From Janthinobacterium lividum (lineage in GTDB: Bacteria > Bacteroidota > Bacteroidia > Cytophagales > Hymenobacteraceae): a DNA stretch of 64,000 nt. The stretch is from the NCBI GenBank assembly GCA_050954845.1, contig JBPBQK010000039.1, positions 37,783 through 101,782 on the forward strand, read 5' to 3'. Below are positions 32,251-43,497 of the stretch, piece by piece. The translations under genes were made by a program, and so were the position numbers. The first letter of the stretch is position 1. Every line of letters starts with the position of its first letter. The notes under the pieces were generated by a model that saw only the letters and a list, made by a program, of their open reading frames with translations, was not told the origin of the DNA and searched no databases.

Positions 32251-33246
32251 TTAGCGCGTTGCAAACGCGCGCGCCAGCCGCTGCAAGGCGAGCAGCGTAA
32301 GCAGCAAGGCCCCGCCCGCGCTGGCCAGCAGCCACCAGGCACCGGGCTCTTGGCGCAGCATACCGAGCAAGCGGCCCCAACTCGAAACATCGGGTGGCCG
32401 CCCAACCCCCAGAAAAGCCAGCGTGCTTTCGAGCCCAATAAGCCCGGCCAGACTGAGTGGCACGGTAGCTTGCAGGGGCCGGCAGGCGTGGGGCAGGGCG
32501 TGGCGCAGCCACACCCTGCCAGTGGACAGGCCCAGCGCGCGCGCCGCCTCCACAAAGGGTAACTCGCGTACTTGCTGCATCTGAGCCCGCACCTGCCGGG
32601 CGGGCTCGGGCCAGGCTACTACTACTAGCAGCACCAGCAGTTGCCCCGTGGCCAGGGGCGGCCCGGCGGCCAGCACAAGCACCAGTACCAGCCGGGGCAC
32701 GGCCCCAAGCAGGGTAATTGCCGTTTGGAAAAGGCTATCGAGCGGCAGCGGCCAAGTGGCGTGGCCCACCCAGCGCACCCGTGGCGCAACCCACCAAGCC
32801 AGCATGGCCGCCCCCAGCAACAAGCCCGCCACCGTGCGGCCACCGGGCAGGGCCACCAGCCACCACCCCACCGCTAGCCCCAGCAGCCACGCGCCCAGCG
32901 GCAGCCGCCAGCCCCGGTCGCCCCAAAAGCCAGCACTACCACCAGCCAGCGCCCCCACCAGCGCCGCCAGCAGGGCCGCCGGCAAACTTAGGATGGCCAC
33001 TTGGCGCGCCCCAAATAGTACCTCCGTCAGGACATCGCAGCCGAGCGGGTCGGTGCCCAGCCAGTGCCGGGGCGCGGCCCCCCAACTTGGTGGCTCGGCC
33101 ACGTGCAGCAGGTCGGGCACGCCGGGGGCGAAGGGCAGCGGTAGCCACGGCGCCAGCAGTCCCACGCCGCTCACTAGCACCAGCCAGCCAATGGCCAGCC
33201 AGGTAAGCCTCGAAAAGGCAACGTATGGAAACCGGCCTAAACGCAT
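32251..33246 (-). CDS. peptide/nickel ABC permease (DppC/OppC type)
   Basis: HWLGTDPLG.D and FVEAARALG (EAA loop). ATG 33246 overlaps the upstream permease stop. Confidence 0.88.
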   Translation of the reverse strand: MRLGRFPYVAFSRLTWLAIGWLVLVSGVGLLAPWLPLPFAPGVPDLLHVAEPPSWGAAPRHWLGTDPLGCDVLTEVLFGARQVAILSLPAALLAALVGALAGGSAGFWGDRGWRLPLGAWLLGLAVGWWLVALPGGRTVAGLLLGAAMLAWWVAPRVRWVGHATWPLPLDSLFQTAITLLGAVPRLVLVLVLAAGPPLATGQLLVLLVVVAWPEPARQVRAQMQQVRELPFVEAARALGLSTGRVWLRHALPHACRPLQATVPLSLAGLIGLESTLAFLGVGRPPDVSSWGRLLGMLRQEPGAWWLLASAGGALLLTLLALQRLARAFATR

Positions 33247-34304
33247 GAGGCAAGGCGAATGCGCGGGTCGACCAACGCTTGCAGGGCATCGGCCAGCGCC
33301 AAGCACAGCAGCCGCACCACCGCCGTGAACAGCACCCCAGCCACTACGACCGGGTAGTCGTGGGCGGCCGCCGACTCGGCTAGCAGGCGGCCCACGCCCG
33401 GGATGGCAAAAACCGTTTCTACCAGCACCGTGCCGGCCAGCAAAGTCGGCAGCAAGCCCGCGAAAGAGGTGAGCAGCGGCAGCAAGGCATTGGGCAGGGC
33501 GTGGCGGCGTAGCAGCGTAGCAGTGGGCACGCCCTTAGCGCGGGCCGTAGTGGCGTAGTCGGCTTGCAGCTCGCGGCGCAGCGCGGCGGCCAGCGGCAAA
33601 GTCAGCTCGGGCAAAACCGCCAGTACCAGCGTTAGCAGCGGCATAAGAAGCTGCAAGGCAAAGGCCCCCGGTGCCAGGTCGGCCGAGCCACTGCCCAGCG
33701 AATAGGCGGGTAACAGATTGAGCGCGTCGGGGTTAGCGAAAACAAAAAGTAGCCCCAGTGCCAAGGCAAATACCGGTATGCTCTGCAAGCTGGTAAGTAG
33801 CACCTGCAAGCCCGCTCGCCACCCCGTGGAGCCAGCTAGTGGGCCGCTCGCCAAGGCCAGCCCCAGCGCTAGTGCCCCCAGCCCGGCTACCACGGCGGCG
33901 GCGCCCGCCAGCGGCAGCGTATAGGCCAGGGCCGCGCGCAGCCGGGGGCCAATAGGCTGGCCATCGCGGTAAGACGCGCCCAACTGGCCGTGCAGCAGCC
34001 CCACTACCCAGTGGTGGTACTGATTATGTGTGCCGTGCCAACGCCAGGTAGCCGAGTCGCGGCTGGTGCGGGTGAGGTAAAAAACTGGCTCCGTAAGCCC
34101 CAAGCGCTGGCGCAGGGCCTGGCGGGCAGCTAGCTGGTCGGCTTGGCCAATGCTGCTGGCGTGCGCCCGCAAGTCATCGCTTTCCCCCAGCATAACTTCT
34201 TCGGCCCCCGCCACCAGTACCCGGCTCAGAATAAATACCAAGGAGGCCGTGGCCCAGGCGGCCAAGCCAGCCCGTCCTATTTGCAGCAGTAGCCAACGCC
34301 TCAT
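33237..34304 (-). CDS. peptide/nickel ABC permease (DppB/OppB type)
   Basis: LGASYRDG, YATTARAKG, RHALPNAL, VETVFAIPGVG, DYPVV. Confidence 0.9.
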   Translation of the reverse strand: MRRWLLLQIGRAGLAAWATASLVFILSRVLVAGAEEVMLGESDDLRAHASSIGQADQLAARQALRQRLGLTEPVFYLTRTSRDSATWRWHGTHNQYHHWVVGLLHGQLGASYRDGQPIGPRLRAALAYTLPLAGAAAVVAGLGALALGLALASGPLAGSTGWRAGLQVLLTSLQSIPVFALALGLLFVFANPDALNLLPAYSLGSGSADLAPGAFALQLLMPLLTLVLAVLPELTLPLAAALRRELQADYATTARAKGVPTATLLRRHALPNALLPLLTSFAGLLPTLLAGTVLVETVFAIPGVGRLLAESAAAHDYPVVVAGVLFTAVVRLLCLALADALQALVDPRIRLASCV

Positions 34305-34316
34305 ATCCCAGCAGGT

Positions 34317-36068
34317 TTAGCGAGCCAGGGCATCTGTTGTGGCGGCCCAGGTAGCAGCGGCGGCATAATAGCCTGGCTTATAGCCCGAGGGGTATAAATT
34401 CTGGAGGCCCCGGGCCGTAGTCAGGCGGTAGGGCAGAAAGAACAGTGGCATCAGTGGCATCTGCTGCTGCATTATCAGCTGGAAGCGCCGGAGCAGCCTG
34501 CGCTTGCGCGCCGGGTTTCCAGTTGCCGCAATAGCGTCGATGAGCTGGTCGGTAGCGCGAGTGCTAAATTTCGTGAAGTTGCTCTCCGGAATGGTGCGCG
34601 AATGCAGCAACGTCGTGAAGTTGAAGGCAAATGGGTTGCCGCTCAGCTTGCGTACATAGATGTCAAAGTCACCCTCGCGGAGGGTAGTAGTCAGGAGCGA
34701 AGGCTCGGTAGGCCGCAGCTCGACCGGGATGCCTAACTTGGTAGCAGCGCTTTTAAACTGAAGCGCAATGGTAGCAAACGTAGGTTCGTCGGTGCGGTAG
34801 CGAACTGTAAGGGACAGTTTCTCAATTGGCTGCGCTTTGGTGGCTGCGCTGCGCACCCAGCCCGTAGCCTGGCGCTGCCAGCCCGCTCGTTGCAGTAGCG
34901 CCAGTGCTTGTGCGGGAGCATAAGCGGGGAGGGGCAGGCTGTCATTATAATACAAGTGGTCGTTCGGGTGCACCAGCCCCACCGTGCGTAGCCCCTGGCC
35001 AAGCTGCGTGGCTTTCAGTAGATTAACTGGGTCAAACAGCAAGGCCAGTGCTTGCCGGGTCAGCGAATCGTGCAGGGCGGGCTGGCGGGTATTGAAGCCC
35101 GCCGTTACCAGCTCGTAAGAAGTAGTAGCGTAAAACGCCAACTCTTGCTGCGCCCCAGTAGCGGTCTGTAGGCGCTGAAACCCACGGGCCGACATCTGCG
35201 GTAGTACATCCAGCTCGTGGCGGCGCAGGGCCAGGGTCGCAGTTGCCTCGTCTGGAATGATGAGAAACTGAATCTGGGGCACCTGGGCTTGCAGCATAAA
35301 GGGCGTGGGCCGCAGCGCATTGGCCCACCAGTGGGGCTTGCGCACAAAGGTCAGGAAATGGTCTATCTCCCAGGTCTTCAGGCGGTAGGCCCCGCAGCCC
35401 GGCAGCCGCTCGGGGTGGTGGCTGGGGTCGGCGTGTTGGTAGCGCTGCACCAAGGCCTGCAGGGCAGTATCACGCTTGGTCAGCAGCGAAAGCTTAGTTA
35501 GCTTGGCCAGCGAGCAGTGGCGTAGCGTGCACTGGGGGTCAAGGGCAGCTTCGGGCAAAATAGGGAACTCGCCGGCCTCGTAGCTGTACTCGGGCGCTTG
35601 CCCCTGGCAAACCAGCGTAAACCGCCGTGGGTTGCCAGCATCCAGCCGGATGGCACGAATGAAGCTGAGCTGCGCCCGCACTTTTTCATTGGGCAGGCCG
35701 GGGCATTGATACAGCTTGAGCGTGAAGGCTACATCGCTGGCCAGCACCGGGCGGCCATTATCCCAGGTAGCAGCCCGGCGCAACTCGTAGCGTAGCTCGG
35801 TAAGCGAATCGCCTACCAAGCGTACGTTAGGCAACGAGTCGGCCAGGGCTGGGGAATAAGTACCCGTCAAAAAATTTACTTGCAGCAAGCTGCAATGCAA
35901 TAAACTCAGGGCATCTATTGCATTTTGGTTGGGCTGTACCAAGGGCGATAGGTTTTCGGGGTCGCGGACCCACCGAACCCGAATGCCGGTATGCTGCTGT
36001 TGCTTAGCTGGTAGCGAGCATGACCCGCTAACAATGGCCAGCAAGAGACCAACCCAAAATTGCTTCAT
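34317..36068 (-). CDS. family-5 (Opp/Dpp/Nik) substrate-binding lipoprotein
   Basis: Lipobox SGSC; 'TWDNGRPVLASDVAFTLK'; 'GCGAYRL..W'; 'VRQALA'-like segment; 583 aa. Confidence 0.9.
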   Translation of the reverse strand: MKQFWVGLLLAIVSGSCSLPAKQQQHTGIRVRWVRDPENLSPLVQPNQNAIDALSLLHCSLLQVNFLTGTYSPALADSLPNVRLVGDSLTELRYELRRAATWDNGRPVLASDVAFTLKLYQCPGLPNEKVRAQLSFIRAIRLDAGNPRRFTLVCQGQAPEYSYEAGEFPILPEAALDPQCTLRHCSLAKLTKLSLLTKRDTALQALVQRYQHADPSHHPERLPGCGAYRLKTWEIDHFLTFVRKPHWWANALRPTPFMLQAQVPQIQFLIIPDEATATLALRRHELDVLPQMSARGFQRLQTATGAQQELAFYATTSYELVTAGFNTRQPALHDSLTRQALALLFDPVNLLKATQLGQGLRTVGLVHPNDHLYYNDSLPLPAYAPAQALALLQRAGWQRQATGWVRSAATKAQPIEKLSLTVRYRTDEPTFATIALQFKSAATKLGIPVELRPTEPSLLTTTLREGDFDIYVRKLSGNPFAFNFTTLLHSRTIPESNFTKFSTRATDQLIDAIAATGNPARKRRLLRRFQLIMQQQMPLMPLFFLPYRLTTARGLQNLYPSGYKPGYYAAAATWAATTDALAR

Positions 36069-36127
36069 TTAACCAGCAGGGTAAAAATCAATGCCAGCAA
36101 GTTAACGAAGTATAAGGATTTACAAGC

Positions 36128-36379
36128 TTAGTCGTGGTCCCAGCCGCTGCCGCCGATGGTCGGGTCCGGGGCTGGCGAGCCAGTTGCGTCGTGGTCCCAG
36201 CCGCTGCCGCCGATGGTGGTAGAAGTGCCGGTTACGTCGTGGTCCCAGCCGCTACCACCGATGGCTTGCGTCGTGGTGGGGCCAGTTACATCATGGTCCC
36301 AGCCACTACCACCAATGTTGGTAGAAGTACCAGTGAGGGTAGCAAACTGCAGTAGGGCAAGTACAAGTAGGTCAAACAT
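36128..36379 (-). CDS. 83-aa secreted precursor with four IGGSGWDHD cores
   Basis: ATG 36379; hydrophobic leader MFDLLVLALLQFATLTG; four exact 9-aa repeats, the last at the C-terminus. Confidence 0.85.
   Translation of the reverse strand: MFDLLVLALLQFATLTGTSTNIGGSGWDHDVTGPTTTQAIGGSGWDHDVTGTSTTIGGSGWDHDATGSPAPDPTIGGSGWDHD
36131..36316 (-). repeat. four in-frame 27-bp coding repeats
   Basis: Units at 36131-36157, 36188-36214, 36236-36262 and 36290-36316; spacers 30, 21 and 27 nt; differences are synonymous only. Confidence 0.95.
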
Positions 36380-36443
36380 GGTAATTGAGGTGAGGGGGTA
36401 GATGATTAACTGATACAAAAGTCCTCACTTACTTAAGCCCAAC

Positions 36444-36472
36444 AAAGGACAATGTTTGTGAAAATAGGACAA
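36444..36472. promoter_or_regulatory. candidate operator: direct repeat A(A/T)AGGACAA with 20-bp period
   Basis: aaaggacaa at 36444 and ataggacaa at 36464, in the divergent intergenic region. Confidence 0.4.
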
Positions 36473-36744
36473 CGATTTTTATTGTATTATTTATAATTTT
36501 TACAAGCAAAAAGCAAGTTTTACTGCTTCTGCTGCGTAAAAATAGAATTTCCCGTGATGATTTTTTGCAAGAAAAAGTGGAAATTGTGACATCTCTTCGA
36601 TAAAAAAGCTCGCTCGTCCACTTTGCAAAGGTTTCAACTAAGCAGCTCGTAAAAAAAGGACAAAGTGGTTATTTTTTTATGTGCTAATTTTAGCACTTAT
36701 TCTAGTCCCAAAACCGCTATTTGGCCTGCTAGGGCGTTTTCTCT

Positions 36745-38253
36745 ATGAAAGAAATTGCAAATTTGGCCCGAATTGTGACATTACGCCGCCTCAAAAATGA
36801 GCCCTTGCTCGATTTGGATACGCGGCAGCCGGGAAAGGAAGCGCAGCTGGCCGCAATCTTAGCAGCCGATGCGCATATTACTGGCCCTCAGGCAGCTAAG
36901 CAAGTTTATGGCAAAAGCTCGGAGGCCAGCCAAACGGCCTTTTTGCGCCTGCGGGCCCGAGTGCAGGAAAAGCTGCTAAACCATCTTTTTTTTCTCGACC
37001 ATACCGATGCGCGCTTGTTTGTAGCGCGTCGCTATGAACTTGAATGTCTGGATTTGCTGCACAAGGTAACAATTTTATACTTAGAAGGCGAATATGCGCT
37101 GAGCGAGCGCCTGCTGCGGCGCTGCTTGCGCCAGGCCGAAAAGGGCGAGTTTACGAAATACGCTGAGCAGGCGTGCCAGCGCTTGAGTACCCTGTATGCC
37201 GAGCAGCGCCAGCAGCACAAATACAACACTTACAGTAAGAAGCTGGCCAAGCTGCGCCAAGTGCTTATTTATGAGCAGGAGGCGGAGCAAATGGCGACCC
37301 AGGTGCGCCTGACGATGACCCGGACGGTGACCATCCGGCGGACGCTGCTGCCCAAGATGCCCGGCTACATTGCCAAGGCCGAGCAGCTGCACCAGAAGGC
37401 GGGTAGCTTCACTACCTACGTATCGCTCTACCGCTTGCGCCTGATACAGGCAGAGTTAACCGGCCATTACGACGAGATTATTCGCTATACCACGGCGGCT
37501 ACGCAGCTGCTGCGCCAGGGCAAGCTCAATGAGCGGCGCTTCGACCAGCGCTTCAACCAGTTTATGAGCATGTATGCGCACTTGCGCAGCCGGCAATACA
37601 AGGCCGGCCTCAAGCTGGCCGAAGATTTTGCGGCCGATTTGCATCCTACTTCCAACAACTGGTTTTACTTCTACGAGCACTATTTGCTGCTGGCCCTGCA
37701 CGCCGGCGAATACGACCACGCCCTGCGCCTGCTGCACGTGGCGCACAAAAACCCGTCGTTTCCGAAGCAGCGGCCCGCCGCCCAAGAGCGCTGGCAACTG
37801 CTGCAAGCCTACGTAGAGTTTGTGCAGCCCGAGGAAACGCTGCCCCAGCGCCGCCGCATTCAGATGGCCACTGCCGCGCTGCTAGTGGTGCCCGAGTTCA
37901 CGCGCGACAAGCGGGGCTACAACGTGGCTATTCTGGTGTTTCAGCTGCTGCACTACCTGCGCCAGCGCGAGCTAGAGCCGGTGCTCACGCGCCTCGAGCG
38001 CCTGCGCAAGTACCAGCAGCGGCACCTACGCGACGCGGCCACCCTGCGCAGCCGCACGCTGCTGCGCCTGCTTATGCTGCTGCCCGAAGCCGAGTTTGAC
38101 CCCGAGGTGCTGGCCAAACGGGGCCAAACCCGCCTGGCGCAGCTAAGCCAGGCCCCTATGGTGGGCGATGCCGACGCCGAGGTCGAAATCATTCCCTACG
38201 AGCGGATTTGGGAGCTGACCCTTAGTATTTTGCGCGCTGGTACTCCACAATAG
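36745..38253 (+). CDS. soluble all-helical protein; putative N-terminal HTH plus TPR-like repeats (candidate peptide-responsive regulator)
   Basis: No signal peptide or TM segment; helix-turn-helix-like 'GPQAAKQVYG...AFLRLRARVQEKLL'; TPR-like units such as 'YLEGEYALSERLLRRCL' and 'LHAGEYDHALRLL'. Confidence 0.75.
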   Translation: MKEIANLARIVTLRRLKNEPLLDLDTRQPGKEAQLAAILAADAHITGPQAAKQVYGKSSEASQTAFLRLRARVQEKLLNHLFFLDHTDARLFVARRYELECLDLLHKVTILYLEGEYALSERLLRRCLRQAEKGEFTKYAEQACQRLSTLYAEQRQQHKYNTYSKKLAKLRQVLIYEQEAEQMATQVRLTMTRTVTIRRTLLPKMPGYIAKAEQLHQKAGSFTTYVSLYRLRLIQAELTGHYDEIIRYTTAATQLLRQGKLNERRFDQRFNQFMSMYAHLRSRQYKAGLKLAEDFAADLHPTSNNWFYFYEHYLLLALHAGEYDHALRLLHVAHKNPSFPKQRPAAQERWQLLQAYVEFVQPEETLPQRRRIQMATAALLVVPEFTRDKRGYNVAILVFQLLHYLRQRELEPVLTRLERLRKYQQRHLRDAATLRSRTLLRLLMLLPEAEFDPEVLAKRGQTRLAQLSQAPMVGDADAEVEIIPYERIWELTLSILRAGTPQ

Positions 38254-38274: not shown

Positions 38275-38874
38275 CTACTGCACCACTACCACCTCCTGGG
38301 TGGCGCAGTGGCTGGCGGCGCAGCTGCCGGGGCCGTAGCCGCGCAAACTTAGGCGCACCTGATAGCGGCCAGCCTTGCGAAAGGTGTGGTCGATGCGGCG
38401 GCCCTGCTGGGTGAGGCCATCGCGAAAGTCCCAGATATAGAGCACGTTCTGGCAAGTGGGCAAGCCCGAGTCCAGGGCGTCGAAGGCTATCGCTTCGCCA
38501 ACGTGGATGGTTTTGGCGGGCAGGCTGAAGTAGATAACGGGCTGCGTAACGAGGTCTACTTCAAAGGTTTTTTCGGCCTTGCGCACCTCGCCGGTGGCGG
38601 GCACCAGCACATCGAGCACTACCTGGTAGCGGGCGCGGCGCTTGTAGCAGTGGCTGATAATGAGTCCGGTGAGAGTAGTGCTGTCGCCCATTTGCCAGCG
38701 GTATACCACGGGGCCCGCGGCCGGGTCCACAGAGCGGCTGGCATCAAAATCTACGCACATCTGGGGTAGGATTGGGGGCCCGCAGTCGGCGGCATCCTGG
38801 GCGTGGGCCGCTTGCGAGGCCAGCCCACCACCCGCCCAAACCGACAAAACCAACAAAGCGCGTAATAAACTCAT
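38275..38874 (-). CDS. secreted PKD-domain protein (two PKD-like repeats)
   Basis: 'FDASRS...YRWQMGD' and 'FDALDS...YIWDFRDG...HTF.KAGRYQVRL'. Confidence 0.85.
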   Translation of the reverse strand: MSLLRALLVLSVWAGGGLASQAAHAQDAADCGPPILPQMCVDFDASRSVDPAAGPVVYRWQMGDSTTLTGLIISHCYKRRARYQVVLDVLVPATGEVRKAEKTFEVDLVTQPVIYFSLPAKTIHVGEAIAFDALDSGLPTCQNVLYIWDFRDGLTQQGRRIDHTFRKAGRYQVRLSLRGYGPGSCAASHCATQEVVVVQ

Positions 38875-38965
38875 ACAAAAACAGGCTAACTAAATAAGCT
38901 GGCGATGGGGCCATAAGTGGCCAATGACCTAAGCCCACCGGCGGGCAAAGTAACGCCCTGCCGCC

Positions 38966-39748
38966 CTACAAGCGGTTGAGCCGCTGCAAAACGTTGCGCA
39001 GGTACGTCTGGCCCACTGGTATATATTTATCCTTGATTAGTAAAGAGTTGTCTTCCAGCGCCTGCACGCAATTGATGTTGGCAATGAAGGAGCGGTGCAC
39101 GCGCACAAACTGCGTGGGCGGAAATTTCTCCTCGATAGCCCGCATGGTGCTGTACACAATGAGCTTGCTTTGGCTGGTGACGATGTGCACGTAATCGCCG
39201 AGGGCCTCGACGTACTGCACCTCGCGAAAATCGACTCGCACCAGCTTGGTATCCATCTTCACAAATGTGAAATCGGGCTCGACGGCCGGGGTTACTAAGC
39301 CCGCAGTATCGCTTTCGGCGGCCCGTTCGGCTGTGATTATATCCAGAACTTTTTGGGCCGCCTGCAAAAAGCGCGGATAGGACAAAGGCTTGAGCAGGTA
39401 ATCGGCCACGGCAAACTCGAAGGCCTGCACTGCATAATTGTCGCTGCTGGTAATAAGCACGACTTGGGGTAGGTCAATTTGCATTCGCAGCAGGTCGATG
39501 CCCGACATCATGGGCATCTCGACATCCAGAAAAAGTACGTCGATAGGCTGGGCGTGAGTACGCAGTAGCTCAGCGGCTTCTAGCGCGTTGGTGAAGGAAC
39601 CGACTGCTTGCAAAAAGGGCGTATTGGCAATGCAGTTCAGAACAATTTGCACCGAAAGCGGGTCGTCGTCAACGACCAGACAACGGAGTGGAGCGGTAGC
39701 AGTAGCGGGCTCAGACGAAGAGGTAGGCATAGCAACAGTTGATTTCAT
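38966..39748 (-). CDS. LytTR-family response regulator
   Basis: VVDDD, FLDVEMP, DYLLKP receiver motifs; FVRVHRSFI LytTR motif. Confidence 0.95.
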   Translation of the reverse strand: MKSTVAMPTSSSEPATATAPLRCLVVDDDPLSVQIVLNCIANTPFLQAVGSFTNALEAAELLRTHAQPIDVLFLDVEMPMMSGIDLLRMQIDLPQVVLITSSDNYAVQAFEFAVADYLLKPLSYPRFLQAAQKVLDIITAERAAESDTAGLVTPAVEPDFTFVKMDTKLVRVDFREVQYVEALGDYVHIVTSQSKLIVYSTMRAIEEKFPPTQFVRVHRSFIANINCVQALEDNSLLIKDKYIPVGQTYLRNVLQRLNRL

Positions 39749-39876
39749 AATAGCTATTCATTACGGGCGATAAATTGTATAAAAGTAATACGACTAATCC
39801 TTATTAGTCAACATATCCGGACGGAAAAACAAGGAAATTGGTAAGAGGTAATACGTAAACAGAAAAAGAACAGGAT

Positions 39877-43497
<3,621 letters not shown>

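Follow-up and report, generated by a model that had tools for sequence, protein, structure and literature searches.

A conserved Hymenobacteraceae locus that pairs a tetratricopeptide-repeat protein with a multicore precursor peptide: a candidate peptide re-import circuit analogous to RRNPP systems

Peptide pheromones that are re-imported into the cell and read there by cytoplasmic tetratricopeptide-repeat (TPR) receptors are regarded as a hallmark of Gram-positive Bacillota, their phages and their plasmids. The pheromone system of plasmid pCF10 has a dedicated OppA-type substrate-binding protein (SBP), PrgZ, and the ComS and SHP pheromones are exported with the help of PptAB and Eep. In Rap-Phr systems, propeptides that contain several pheromones, including tandemly duplicated ones, are known (PMC11343458), and the large surveys of the RRNPP receptors have analyzed Firmicutes only (PMC10075063, PMC9765709). 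Here we analyze a locus in a 64-kb stretch of DNA from a soil Hymenobacter (contig JBPBQK010000039.1; "the window" below is this whole stretch). In it, the gene of a short multicore precursor peptide, followed by genes for an SBP and two oligopeptide-type permeases, lies divergent from the gene of a 502-aa TPR protein, here called REG. We found no prior description of such a system in Bacteroidota in the literature searched, in agreement with the initial annotation of this DNA.

We propose that these genes encode a circuit of peptide export, processing and re-import with a cytoplasmic TPR receptor, analogous to RRNPP systems and built from different protein families. We give this reading roughly even chances. 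The locus itself is real, strongly conserved and essentially unannotated. Its parts were all found where the initial annotation had placed them, namely the four-core precursor gene (36379-36128), the SBP gene 59 bp further on without an intervening terminator, the two permease genes, and the divergent 502-aa protein across an AT-rich gap of about 365 bp:

36128..36379, minus strand: precursor peptide gene, 83 aa, with four IGGSGWDHD cores behind a leader and with Thr/Pro-rich spacers; stop codon 36128-36130
36329..36379, minus strand: leader, residues 1-17 (MFDLLVLALLQFATLTG), hydrophobic from the residue after Met, no Lys or Arg
36290..36316, minus strand: core 1, IGGSGWDHD
36236..36262, minus strand: core 2, IGGSGWDHD
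36188..36214, minus strand: core 3, IGGSGWDHD
36131..36157, minus strand: core 4, IGGSGWDHD, the C-terminus of the precursor
34317..36068, minus strand: family-5 substrate-binding lipoprotein (SBP), 583 aa; Pfam SBP_bac_5, E 1.8e-44
33237..34304, minus strand: OppB/NikB-type permease, 355 aa; BPD_transp_1, E 6e-25; best NCBIfam models Opp2B and Opp4B, below cut-offs
32251..33306, minus strand: OppC/NikC-type permease, 351 aa; BPD_transp_1, E 8.6e-20; best NCBIfam model Opp4C
36745..38253, plus strand: REG, 502 aa, cytoplasmic TPR solenoid protein by predicted fold, putative peptide receptor
36745..36999, plus strand: N-terminal four-helix domain of REG, residues 1-85, from the model and a conserved motif

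The full precursor reads MFDLLVLALLQFATLTGTSTN-IGGSGWDHD-VTGPTTTQA-IGGSGWDHD-VTGTSTT-IGGSGWDHD-ATGSPAPDPT-IGGSGWDHD-stop. Its four cores, 27 nt each, show 20 pairwise nucleotide differences, all of them at third codon positions and all synonymous. Two species with a 90%-identical REG keep IGGSGWDHD in all 8 of their copies, with varying spacers, and the nonapeptide is thus found in 12 of 12 copies across three species, the window included. The cores are under selection at the protein level. The 59-nt gap between the precursor and SBP genes has 37% GC, and a scan found no terminator-like site in it.

The arrangement recurs throughout the family. REG has a match in 143 of the 150 other Hymenobacteraceae genomes sampled, mostly in single copy and at 30-90% identity. 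A short open reading frame (ORF) that reads towards the SBP gene occupies the gap between the REG and SBP genes at 35/35 other Hymenobacteraceae loci. Sixteen loci were fully sampled in five other genera; there REG <-> short ORF -> SBP -> permease -> permease is the invariant order (16/16), and these genes are the conserved neighbors, with nothing else among them. The short ORF is likewise followed by the SBP gene at all 19 further Hymenobacter loci, and the distance from start codon to start codon between REG and the precursor gene is 353-378 nt in four genera. Because the differences among the cores are all synonymous and the arrangement recurs at all 35 other family loci, the grouping of precursor, REG, SBP and permeases is far beyond chance. 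It had been suggested at the outset that REG homologues should lie divergent from an ORF with a hydrophobic leader and Gly/Trp-containing cores; this is what we find at every Hymenobacteraceae locus checked. Among five family genomes without REG, four have no SBP match and the fifth has only a weak one (26% identity).

The short ORFs of the family share a common build. About 16 hydrophobic residues come right after Met, in the pattern M-(F/L/I/V)-(E/D/Q)-L-L-x-x-A-L-(L/F)-Q-..., and Lys and Arg are absent from residues 1-20 in 25 of 27 precursors. The leader is followed by a Thr/Ser/Pro-rich low-complexity linker and then by the core, with the consensus (I/V/Y/F)-G-G-(S/T)-G-(x)-W-x-x-(x)-(D/N/H), placed at the stop codon or a few residues before it. 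Genera other than Hymenobacter have a single core at the extreme C-terminus. Hymenobacter precursors carry 1-17 tandem cores, near-identical within a genome and of one or two unit types per genome; the longest precursor of the family reaches 249 aa. The core tails vary across genera (GND, GGD, DDNN, DNKD, GETH and others), with no conserved His or Cys. With a conserved leader, a linker, a C-terminal core and a variable copy number, the short ORF plausibly behaves like a propeptide.

A leader profile, in which the window's own leader was included, matched the window ORF alone across all 6.57 Mb of the genome, at 23-30 bits against 8-9 bits for the runner-up. Just 11 similar predicted proteins were found in a 5.8-billion protein set, all named "hypothetical", and eight precursors searched against NCBIfam gave a single sub-threshold match, WGxxGxxG_fam, to their hydrophobic part. 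Such precursor peptides are almost never annotated. At one locus (L026, G016:C5), three tandem single-core precursor genes lie between the SBP and TPR genes, each ending ...GGTGSWDDNN, which looks like amplification at the level of the gene and not within it.

REG of the window has no match in Pfam or NCBIfam. The AlphaFold2 (AF2) model, built from an alignment of 119 sequences, has a predicted local distance difference test score (pLDDT) of 94.4, a predicted TM-score of 0.91 and 24 helices: an N-terminal domain with helices at residues 2-14, 31-41, 47-55 and 60-83, then paired helices up to residue 498. In a Foldseek search of the PDB, the matches listed are generic TPR solenoids (IFT-A, P58IPK, TTC7B, SKI3, DdvA and others; best E 3e-3, TM <= 0.4), and TPR families of Pfam match up to 18 of 95 REG family members. 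The TPR-like character first read from the sequence is therefore confirmed at the level of the fold. The sequence shows no signal peptide, in keeping with a cytoplasmic protein. The N-terminal domain carries the conserved motif KE..LY..I..G....D..AA..LY........Y..LK.RL..KLLN; modeled alone, residues 1-96 reach a pLDDT of 89.9. Among 1.84 billion cluster representatives, 1,930 relatives were found at E<=1e-3, nearly all of them close to 500 aa long and aligned over their full length. Having no Pfam or NCBIfam model, REG thus defines a new protein family of about 1,900 cluster representatives, and the definition comes with a rule for locating the partner peptides.

The importer is of the Opp/Dpp/Nik type, with a family-5 (cluster C) SBP and two OppB/OppC-type permeases. 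The N-terminus of the window SBP is lipobox-like, and its orthologues also have a Cys-containing, lipobox-like N-terminus. It is distant from NikA, YejA, MppA, DppA and OppA. The curated models that score best for it, nickel and metallophore binders among them, all stay far under their cut-offs, and the importer proteins score far beneath the curated NCBIfam cut-offs of every named Opp/Dpp/Nik subfamily. There is no ATPase gene in the locus, and the importer as encoded here, an SBP with permeases, is incomplete. The genome has a single fused OppD/F-type ATPase (614 aa, with two ABC_tran and two oligo_HPY domains), encoded next to lspA on contig C111, as well as a second OppB-like permease and one further SBP_bac_5 gene, an orphan on another contig, besides the window copy. 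The window importer presumably borrows the fused ATPase. Since this ATPase is kept in 5/5 family genomes that lack REG, it is a shared and not a dedicated component. The initial annotation had described a dedicated importer and a locus containing every part of the circuit; this holds for the SBP and the permeases, and fails for an ATPase of its own and for a linked exporter or protease.

The analysis shows gene content, fold, linkage, phyletic co-occurrence and protein-level selection on the cores; the functional steps of the proposed circuit are all inferred. The 83-aa precursor would be inserted into or exported across the inner membrane via its uncharged hydrophobic leader. Envelope or extracellular proteases would cut the Thr/Pro-rich spacers, giving up to four peptides of about 9 aa, approximately IGGSGWDHD. 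The lipoprotein SBP encoded directly downstream would capture the released peptide, which would then enter through the two Opp-type permeases, powered by the fused OppD/F-type ATPase encoded elsewhere. Once in the cytoplasm, the peptide could bind in the groove of the REG solenoid, and peptide-bound REG would alter gene expression, beginning with the conserved divergent promoter region. Its output might pass through the small N-terminal helical domain or, as with Rap, through a partner protein.

Several results weigh against this circuit. Among the conserved neighbors of the locus there is no linked exporter, processing protease or outer-membrane transporter, and the leader, without the positive n-region of Sec signals, is not a canonical Sec signal. 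The locus belongs to a slow-evolving core set, near-universal, single-copy and syntenic in the family and with GGxGxW conserved across genera; such conservation is unlike that of typical fast-diversifying pherotypes. No RRNPP receptor occurs among the 50 Foldseek PDB matches listed for REG, and a profile search of PDB sequences returned kinesin-light-chain or synthetic TPRs only. The helix-turn-helix (HTH) domain assigned to the regulator in the initial annotation could not be demonstrated. No HTH family of Pfam matches any of the 95 REG family members, the best Foldseek E-value of the N-terminal domain is 1.6 (winged-HTH and AsnC HTH structures at TM 0.40-0.48 over 51-59 columns), and hhalign against the genome's own 15 GerE domains gave a probability of 0.9%. 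DNA binding is a candidate role of the modeled N-terminal domain, and is not established. Outside the family, no recognizable peptide neighbor was found at 13/18 order-level loci and 4/10 phylum-level loci, and the Hymenobacteraceae leader profile scores distant leaders at 4-10 bits, within background.

Two further assignments were rejected on the same results. A LuxR-like pattern had been suspected in the REG consensus, and neither Pfam, Foldseek with the N-terminal domain, nor hhalign against GerE domains supports it. Membership of REG in RRNPP, the kinship claimed in the initial annotation, failed the homology test: the PDB profile search and the Foldseek matches listed give nothing that ties REG specifically to RRNPP receptors in sequence or structure. 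Membership is thus unsupported, and an RRNPP-like mode of working is plausible.

The pairing of REG with short ORFs extends beyond Hymenobacteraceae. REG relatives are present in 52/201 Cytophagales and 17/301 Bacteroidota genomes sampled, and also in metagenome bins labeled Kapabacteria and Ignavibacteria; in the two largest families sampled there are none (0/63 and 0/49). Outside Hymenobacteraceae, they mostly do not lie beside an SBP gene. Many of the distant relatives nevertheless have a divergent short ORF of similar build, with a hydrophobic leader, at a distance of 160-570 nt, as identified by a filter that gives some false positives. These ORFs are kept among related genomes, with lineage-specific cores, and the finding extends the divergent pairing, with other cores, to further Cytophagales families, to other orders and to Kapabacteria-like genomes. 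Examples are MSFLVSLLLFLGVISSEADYD...RQNDPSDEDGW, MGLLVALYIAVGIQF...RPGEGGGW, MDLITALLIFFGMASPD...QIDRRED, MDLICAILMYFGLLTSPQ...GIDRTED and MIHLILSLLLSFSSPEE...GGGDWSDDG; multicore forms are MGFLVSIIVALSSFL followed by (IDPAGNK)x7, and MGTITAIIIALLSIV followed by (TDPNGKNIV)x4, that is, IVTDPNGKN repeats. Homology of the leaders across lineages is not demonstrated by the profile, and we regard the common feature as one of architecture.

Where paralogous REGs occur in one genome, their peptides differ: in G578 one pairs with ...IDR(R/T)ED and another with ...EIVDRGTGN, and in G284 the peptides have two different W-containing tails. In one genus, two species with 96%-identical REG have the common tail ...NDPSDEDGW. 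In a third species of that genus, with REG 78% identical, the tail is ...SEPVDIDKF; the first 37 residues are nearly unchanged, and the last 17 differ at 10 positions. A constant leader and pro-region with a fast-changing core that tracks REG is the pattern of cognate pheromone-receptor pairs. It is tempting to propose a Bacteroidota-wide family of such pairs (Cytophagales, other Bacteroidia orders, Kapabacteria), with hydrophobic-leader and often multicore peptides and of an origin independent of RRNPP, whose own SBP/permease uptake was acquired in Hymenobacteraceae. We hold this wider proposal tentatively, at somewhat below even chances. If true, this diderm phylum would have its first quorum-sensing family based on ribosomal peptides.

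Two other Cytophagales arrangements were observed. In another family of the order (L044, G168:C101, 1952-5149), ORFs assigned by eye as a 783-aa TonB-dependent-receptor-like protein and a 280-aa lipoprotein-like protein lie between the SBP and TPR genes; no precursor was recognized there, and the receptor-like ORF hints at an outer-membrane uptake step. At L049, L050 and L057, distant REG relatives are divergent, in place of a peptide, from a conserved 145-aa protein with the motif ...LPxDFxPDxLPxxGFTDD, which we take by eye to be DUF1232/YkvA-like. Judging from these neighbors, the REG family probably has more than one kind of partner.

An alternative that we consider unlikely is that the short protein stays anchored in the inner membrane by its N-terminal helix, as a tethered ligand or accessory subunit by which the transporter is gated or reported on. 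Its C-terminal GGxGxW motif or motifs would face the SBP or a different periplasmic partner from the end of a stalk that is rich in Thr and Ser and may be glycosylated. The hydrophobic N-terminus without a charged flank or clear signal-peptidase site would suit such a tether, as would the single motif that closes a long low-complexity linker in most genera, the lack of a linked protease, and the probable co-transcription of the precursor gene with the SBP gene across the 59-nt gap. However, the cytoplasmic REG has such ORFs as partners also at loci without a nearby SBP gene, and the precursor has no cytoplasmic segment for contact. Arrays of up to 17 identical units are also better suited to a polyprotein.

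Quite unlikely, in our estimate, is a secreted bioactive product, either one like a ribosomally made peptide with post-translational modifications (RiPP), matured by enzymes that are not linked, or a peptide that serves in scavenging or metal binding. It would be recaptured by the SBP and permeases in the manner of methanobactin and MbnE, with REG regulating its production. The architecture of a leader with multiple cores is that of such precursors, the window core has an Asp/His-rich tail, nickel and metallophore binders are among the best SBP models (all far below cut-offs), and one other Cytophagales family has a TonB-dependent-receptor-like gene beside the SBP gene. A test of the locus as a RiPP cluster nevertheless found the precursor architecture and, by Pfam, NCBIfam and the neighbor survey, no modifying enzyme family among the conserved neighbors. 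No His or Cys is conserved across genera, the IDPAGNK and IDRTED cores of other lineages have no metal-binding character, and cores that are short, acidic and hydrophilic are unlike bacteriocins.

It is also improbable that REG acts before export, as a cytoplasmic chaperone, scaffold or targeting factor for an aggregation-prone leader, with the transporter serving some other substrate. Chaperone and adaptor roles are common for TPR proteins, the searches with REG gave no DNA-binding domain, and within a lineage no part of the precursor is better conserved than the leader. This explanation, however, leaves the divergence of the C-terminal cores alongside REG paralogues unaccounted for, as well as the duplicated REG genes that are divergent from an SBP gene alone; a divergent layout around a conserved control region is what regulator-target pairs typically show. 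That the short ORF is a cis-regulatory upstream ORF, its translation through Gly and Trp codons controlling transporter expression and its product functionless, is hardly credible: its position 59 nt upstream of the SBP gene, not set off from it by a terminator, and its richness in Gly and Trp codons would suit such a role, but it reaches lengths of 249 aa, is strongly conserved as a protein, pairs with REG where no transporter follows, and in G114 and G092 is separate from the SBP gene.

The proposed re-import circuit would begin its regulatory output in the divergent control region, whose conserved footprint was obtained from an alignment of 27 intergenic regions. The earlier estimate of an AT-rich gap of about 365 bp proved exact; its GC content of 36% compares with 59% for the whole window:

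36380..36744, no strand: AT-rich divergent control region, 365 nt, 36% GC
36414..36451, minus strand: promoter-like module B, TGTCCTTT, 22 nt, then GACTTTTGTA (Bacteroidetes -7-like box); the precursor ATG follows about 35 nt downstream
36624..36662, minus strand: promoter-like module A, TGTCCTTT, 23 nt, then AACCTTTGCA; same orientation as module B
36585..36592, minus strand: conserved ATGTCACA box (ATGT-N-ACAT in most relatives)

The two TGTCCTTT copies each lie 22-26 nt upstream of an nAnnTTTG(T/C)A element, similar to the Bacteroidetes -7 box, and both point towards the precursor gene, with the conserved ATGTCACA box between the two modules. In the window there is an extra TTGTCCTAT at 36464-36472, 20 nt upstream of the proximal TGTCCTTT box. 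No Rfam family matches the control region. A pattern search of the genome for the composite TGTCCTTT-N(16-28)-AnnTTTG(T/C)A gave five occurrences, two of them in the locus. The other three (contigs C76:138, C76:39295 and C105:498) precede phage-like genes, so that the TGTCCTTT boxes may be a promoter type and not a private operator of REG; the composite motif may represent a rare promoter class common to the peptide locus and a prophage. Two of the three phage-side sites precede near-identical ORFs of 313/314 aa, which we take by eye to be S49/ClpP-like head-maturation proteases. A direct repeat, TTGTCCTAT/TTGTCCTTT, spaced by 20-21 nt at 36444-36472, is spaced as LytTR binding sites typically are and would suit a LytTR protein.

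Such a protein is encoded nearby. At 38275-43497 (minus strand) of the window, genes for a PKD-domain protein, a LytTR response regulator and a 1,206-aa ORF, hybrid-histidine-kinase-like as assigned by eye, converge on the REG gene. An agr-like reading with these neighbors was rejected, as other genera do not keep them with the locus.

Variations in the copy number and linkage of REG were also seen. Two Hymenobacter species, G114 (L078, C27) and G092 (L079, C15), have a split module, REG-a <-> precursor ... SBP <-> REG-b, and the orthologous permeases are encoded on a different contig; in one genome a second SBP <-> REG pair stands without a neighboring peptide or permeases. Linkage to the permeases is thus usual and not obligatory. 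By their placement, REG copies tend to be divergent from a precursor or an SBP gene, as regulators often are from their targets. In genus g3 (L033, L035, L036, L038), REG is tandemly duplicated, with a downstream copy 27-30% identical, beside a single precursor and SBP operon. On the 141-kb plasmid of Hymenobacter sp. BRD128 (L110; NZ_CP053909.1, 62156-63688), a REG paralogue, 46% identical, has a tyrosine recombinase gene directly downstream and a gene with a TraM-recognition domain nearby; no peptide ORF was found beside it. No REG homologue was found in phage records or viral-contig collections. With no phage or viral homologue, and with the sole plasmid paralogue lacking an adjoining peptide, a link of the system to mobile elements was rejected.

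If the proposed circuit exists, the logic of signaling by re-import has evolved more than once, and the question arises of how short peptides cross the outer membrane in both directions. It would also be a candidate channel of cell-cell communication for soil and surface Bacteroidota, in which we know of no such channel.

The resemblance to RRNPP systems is one of design. A cytoplasmic receptor of the TPR-type helical-repeat class is supported here by the AF2 model, the Foldseek matches and the Pfam matches of the family, but homology to Rap, NprR, PlcR, PrgX, Rgg or AimR is not, as judged from the PDB profile search and the Foldseek matches listed. At their N-terminus, RRNPP receptors carry an XRE-type HTH (PlcR, NprR, PrgX, Rgg, AimR) or, in Rap, a three-helix bundle as effector domain; the N-terminal domain of REG has four helices in the model. 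The host is Hymenobacter, of the Bacteroidota, and not one of the Bacillota or their mobile elements. An adjacent gene with the architecture of a propeptide, the product of which would be secreted, is seen at 35/35 other family loci and in several other lineages. Genes for an SBP and two permeases, which could provide Opp-type re-import, directly follow the precursor gene. Compared with the Opp/Dpp/Nik (PepT-family) importers in general, the locus has the family-5 SBP and two BPD_transp_1 permeases, but no ATPase in the operon, and its scores fall below the named subfamilies.

Functionally, the systems nearest to the locus are PrgX/PrgQ/PrgZ, Rap-Phr with multi-pheromone propeptides, and ComRS or Rgg-SHP. 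In the layout of its genes, the locus resembles PrgX/PrgQ (iCF10)/PrgZ of Enterococcus faecalis pCF10. There, too, the gene of a helical-repeat receptor is divergent from a short propeptide gene, an OppA-family lipoprotein SBP is encoded in the locus with the ATPases elsewhere, and the mature peptide is C-terminal. However, PrgX has an XRE-type HTH and RRNPP kinship, whereas REG is a TPR solenoid of about 500 aa with no demonstrable HTH or specific similarity. The Hymenobacter locus also encodes its own permeases, is chromosomal and conserved in the family, and has a diderm host.

Rap-Phr resembles it in a TPR receptor with a small N-terminal helical domain, non-HTH in Rap and without a demonstrable HTH in REG, in several pheromone copies, in extracellular proteolysis and in Opp uptake (PMC11343458), the last two being steps that would have counterparts in Hymenobacter. 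In contrast, Phr peptides have classical Sec signals and are encoded downstream of rap in the same orientation, and Rap is about 380 aa and found in Bacillota only; no Rap structure occurs among the Foldseek matches listed for REG. ComR-ComS (XIP) and Rgg-SHP (PMC5131902, PMC3150281) provide short precursors with a hydrophobic start, some ComS without a charged n-region, a Trp-containing C-terminal active peptide, Opp/Ami import and a TPR-type cytoplasmic receptor; in Hymenobacter the corresponding steps are predicted ones. ComS and SHP differ in being 17-25 aa long without linker or repeats, ComR and Rgg carry an HTH, and nothing comparable to PptAB or Eep is linked at the Hymenobacter locus. 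The locus is thus unlike PrgX/PrgQ/PrgZ, Rap-Phr and ComRS/Rgg-SHP in its receptor family, its type of leader, the SBP and permeases of its operon, its diderm host, and its place as a conserved chromosomal core locus and not an accessory one.

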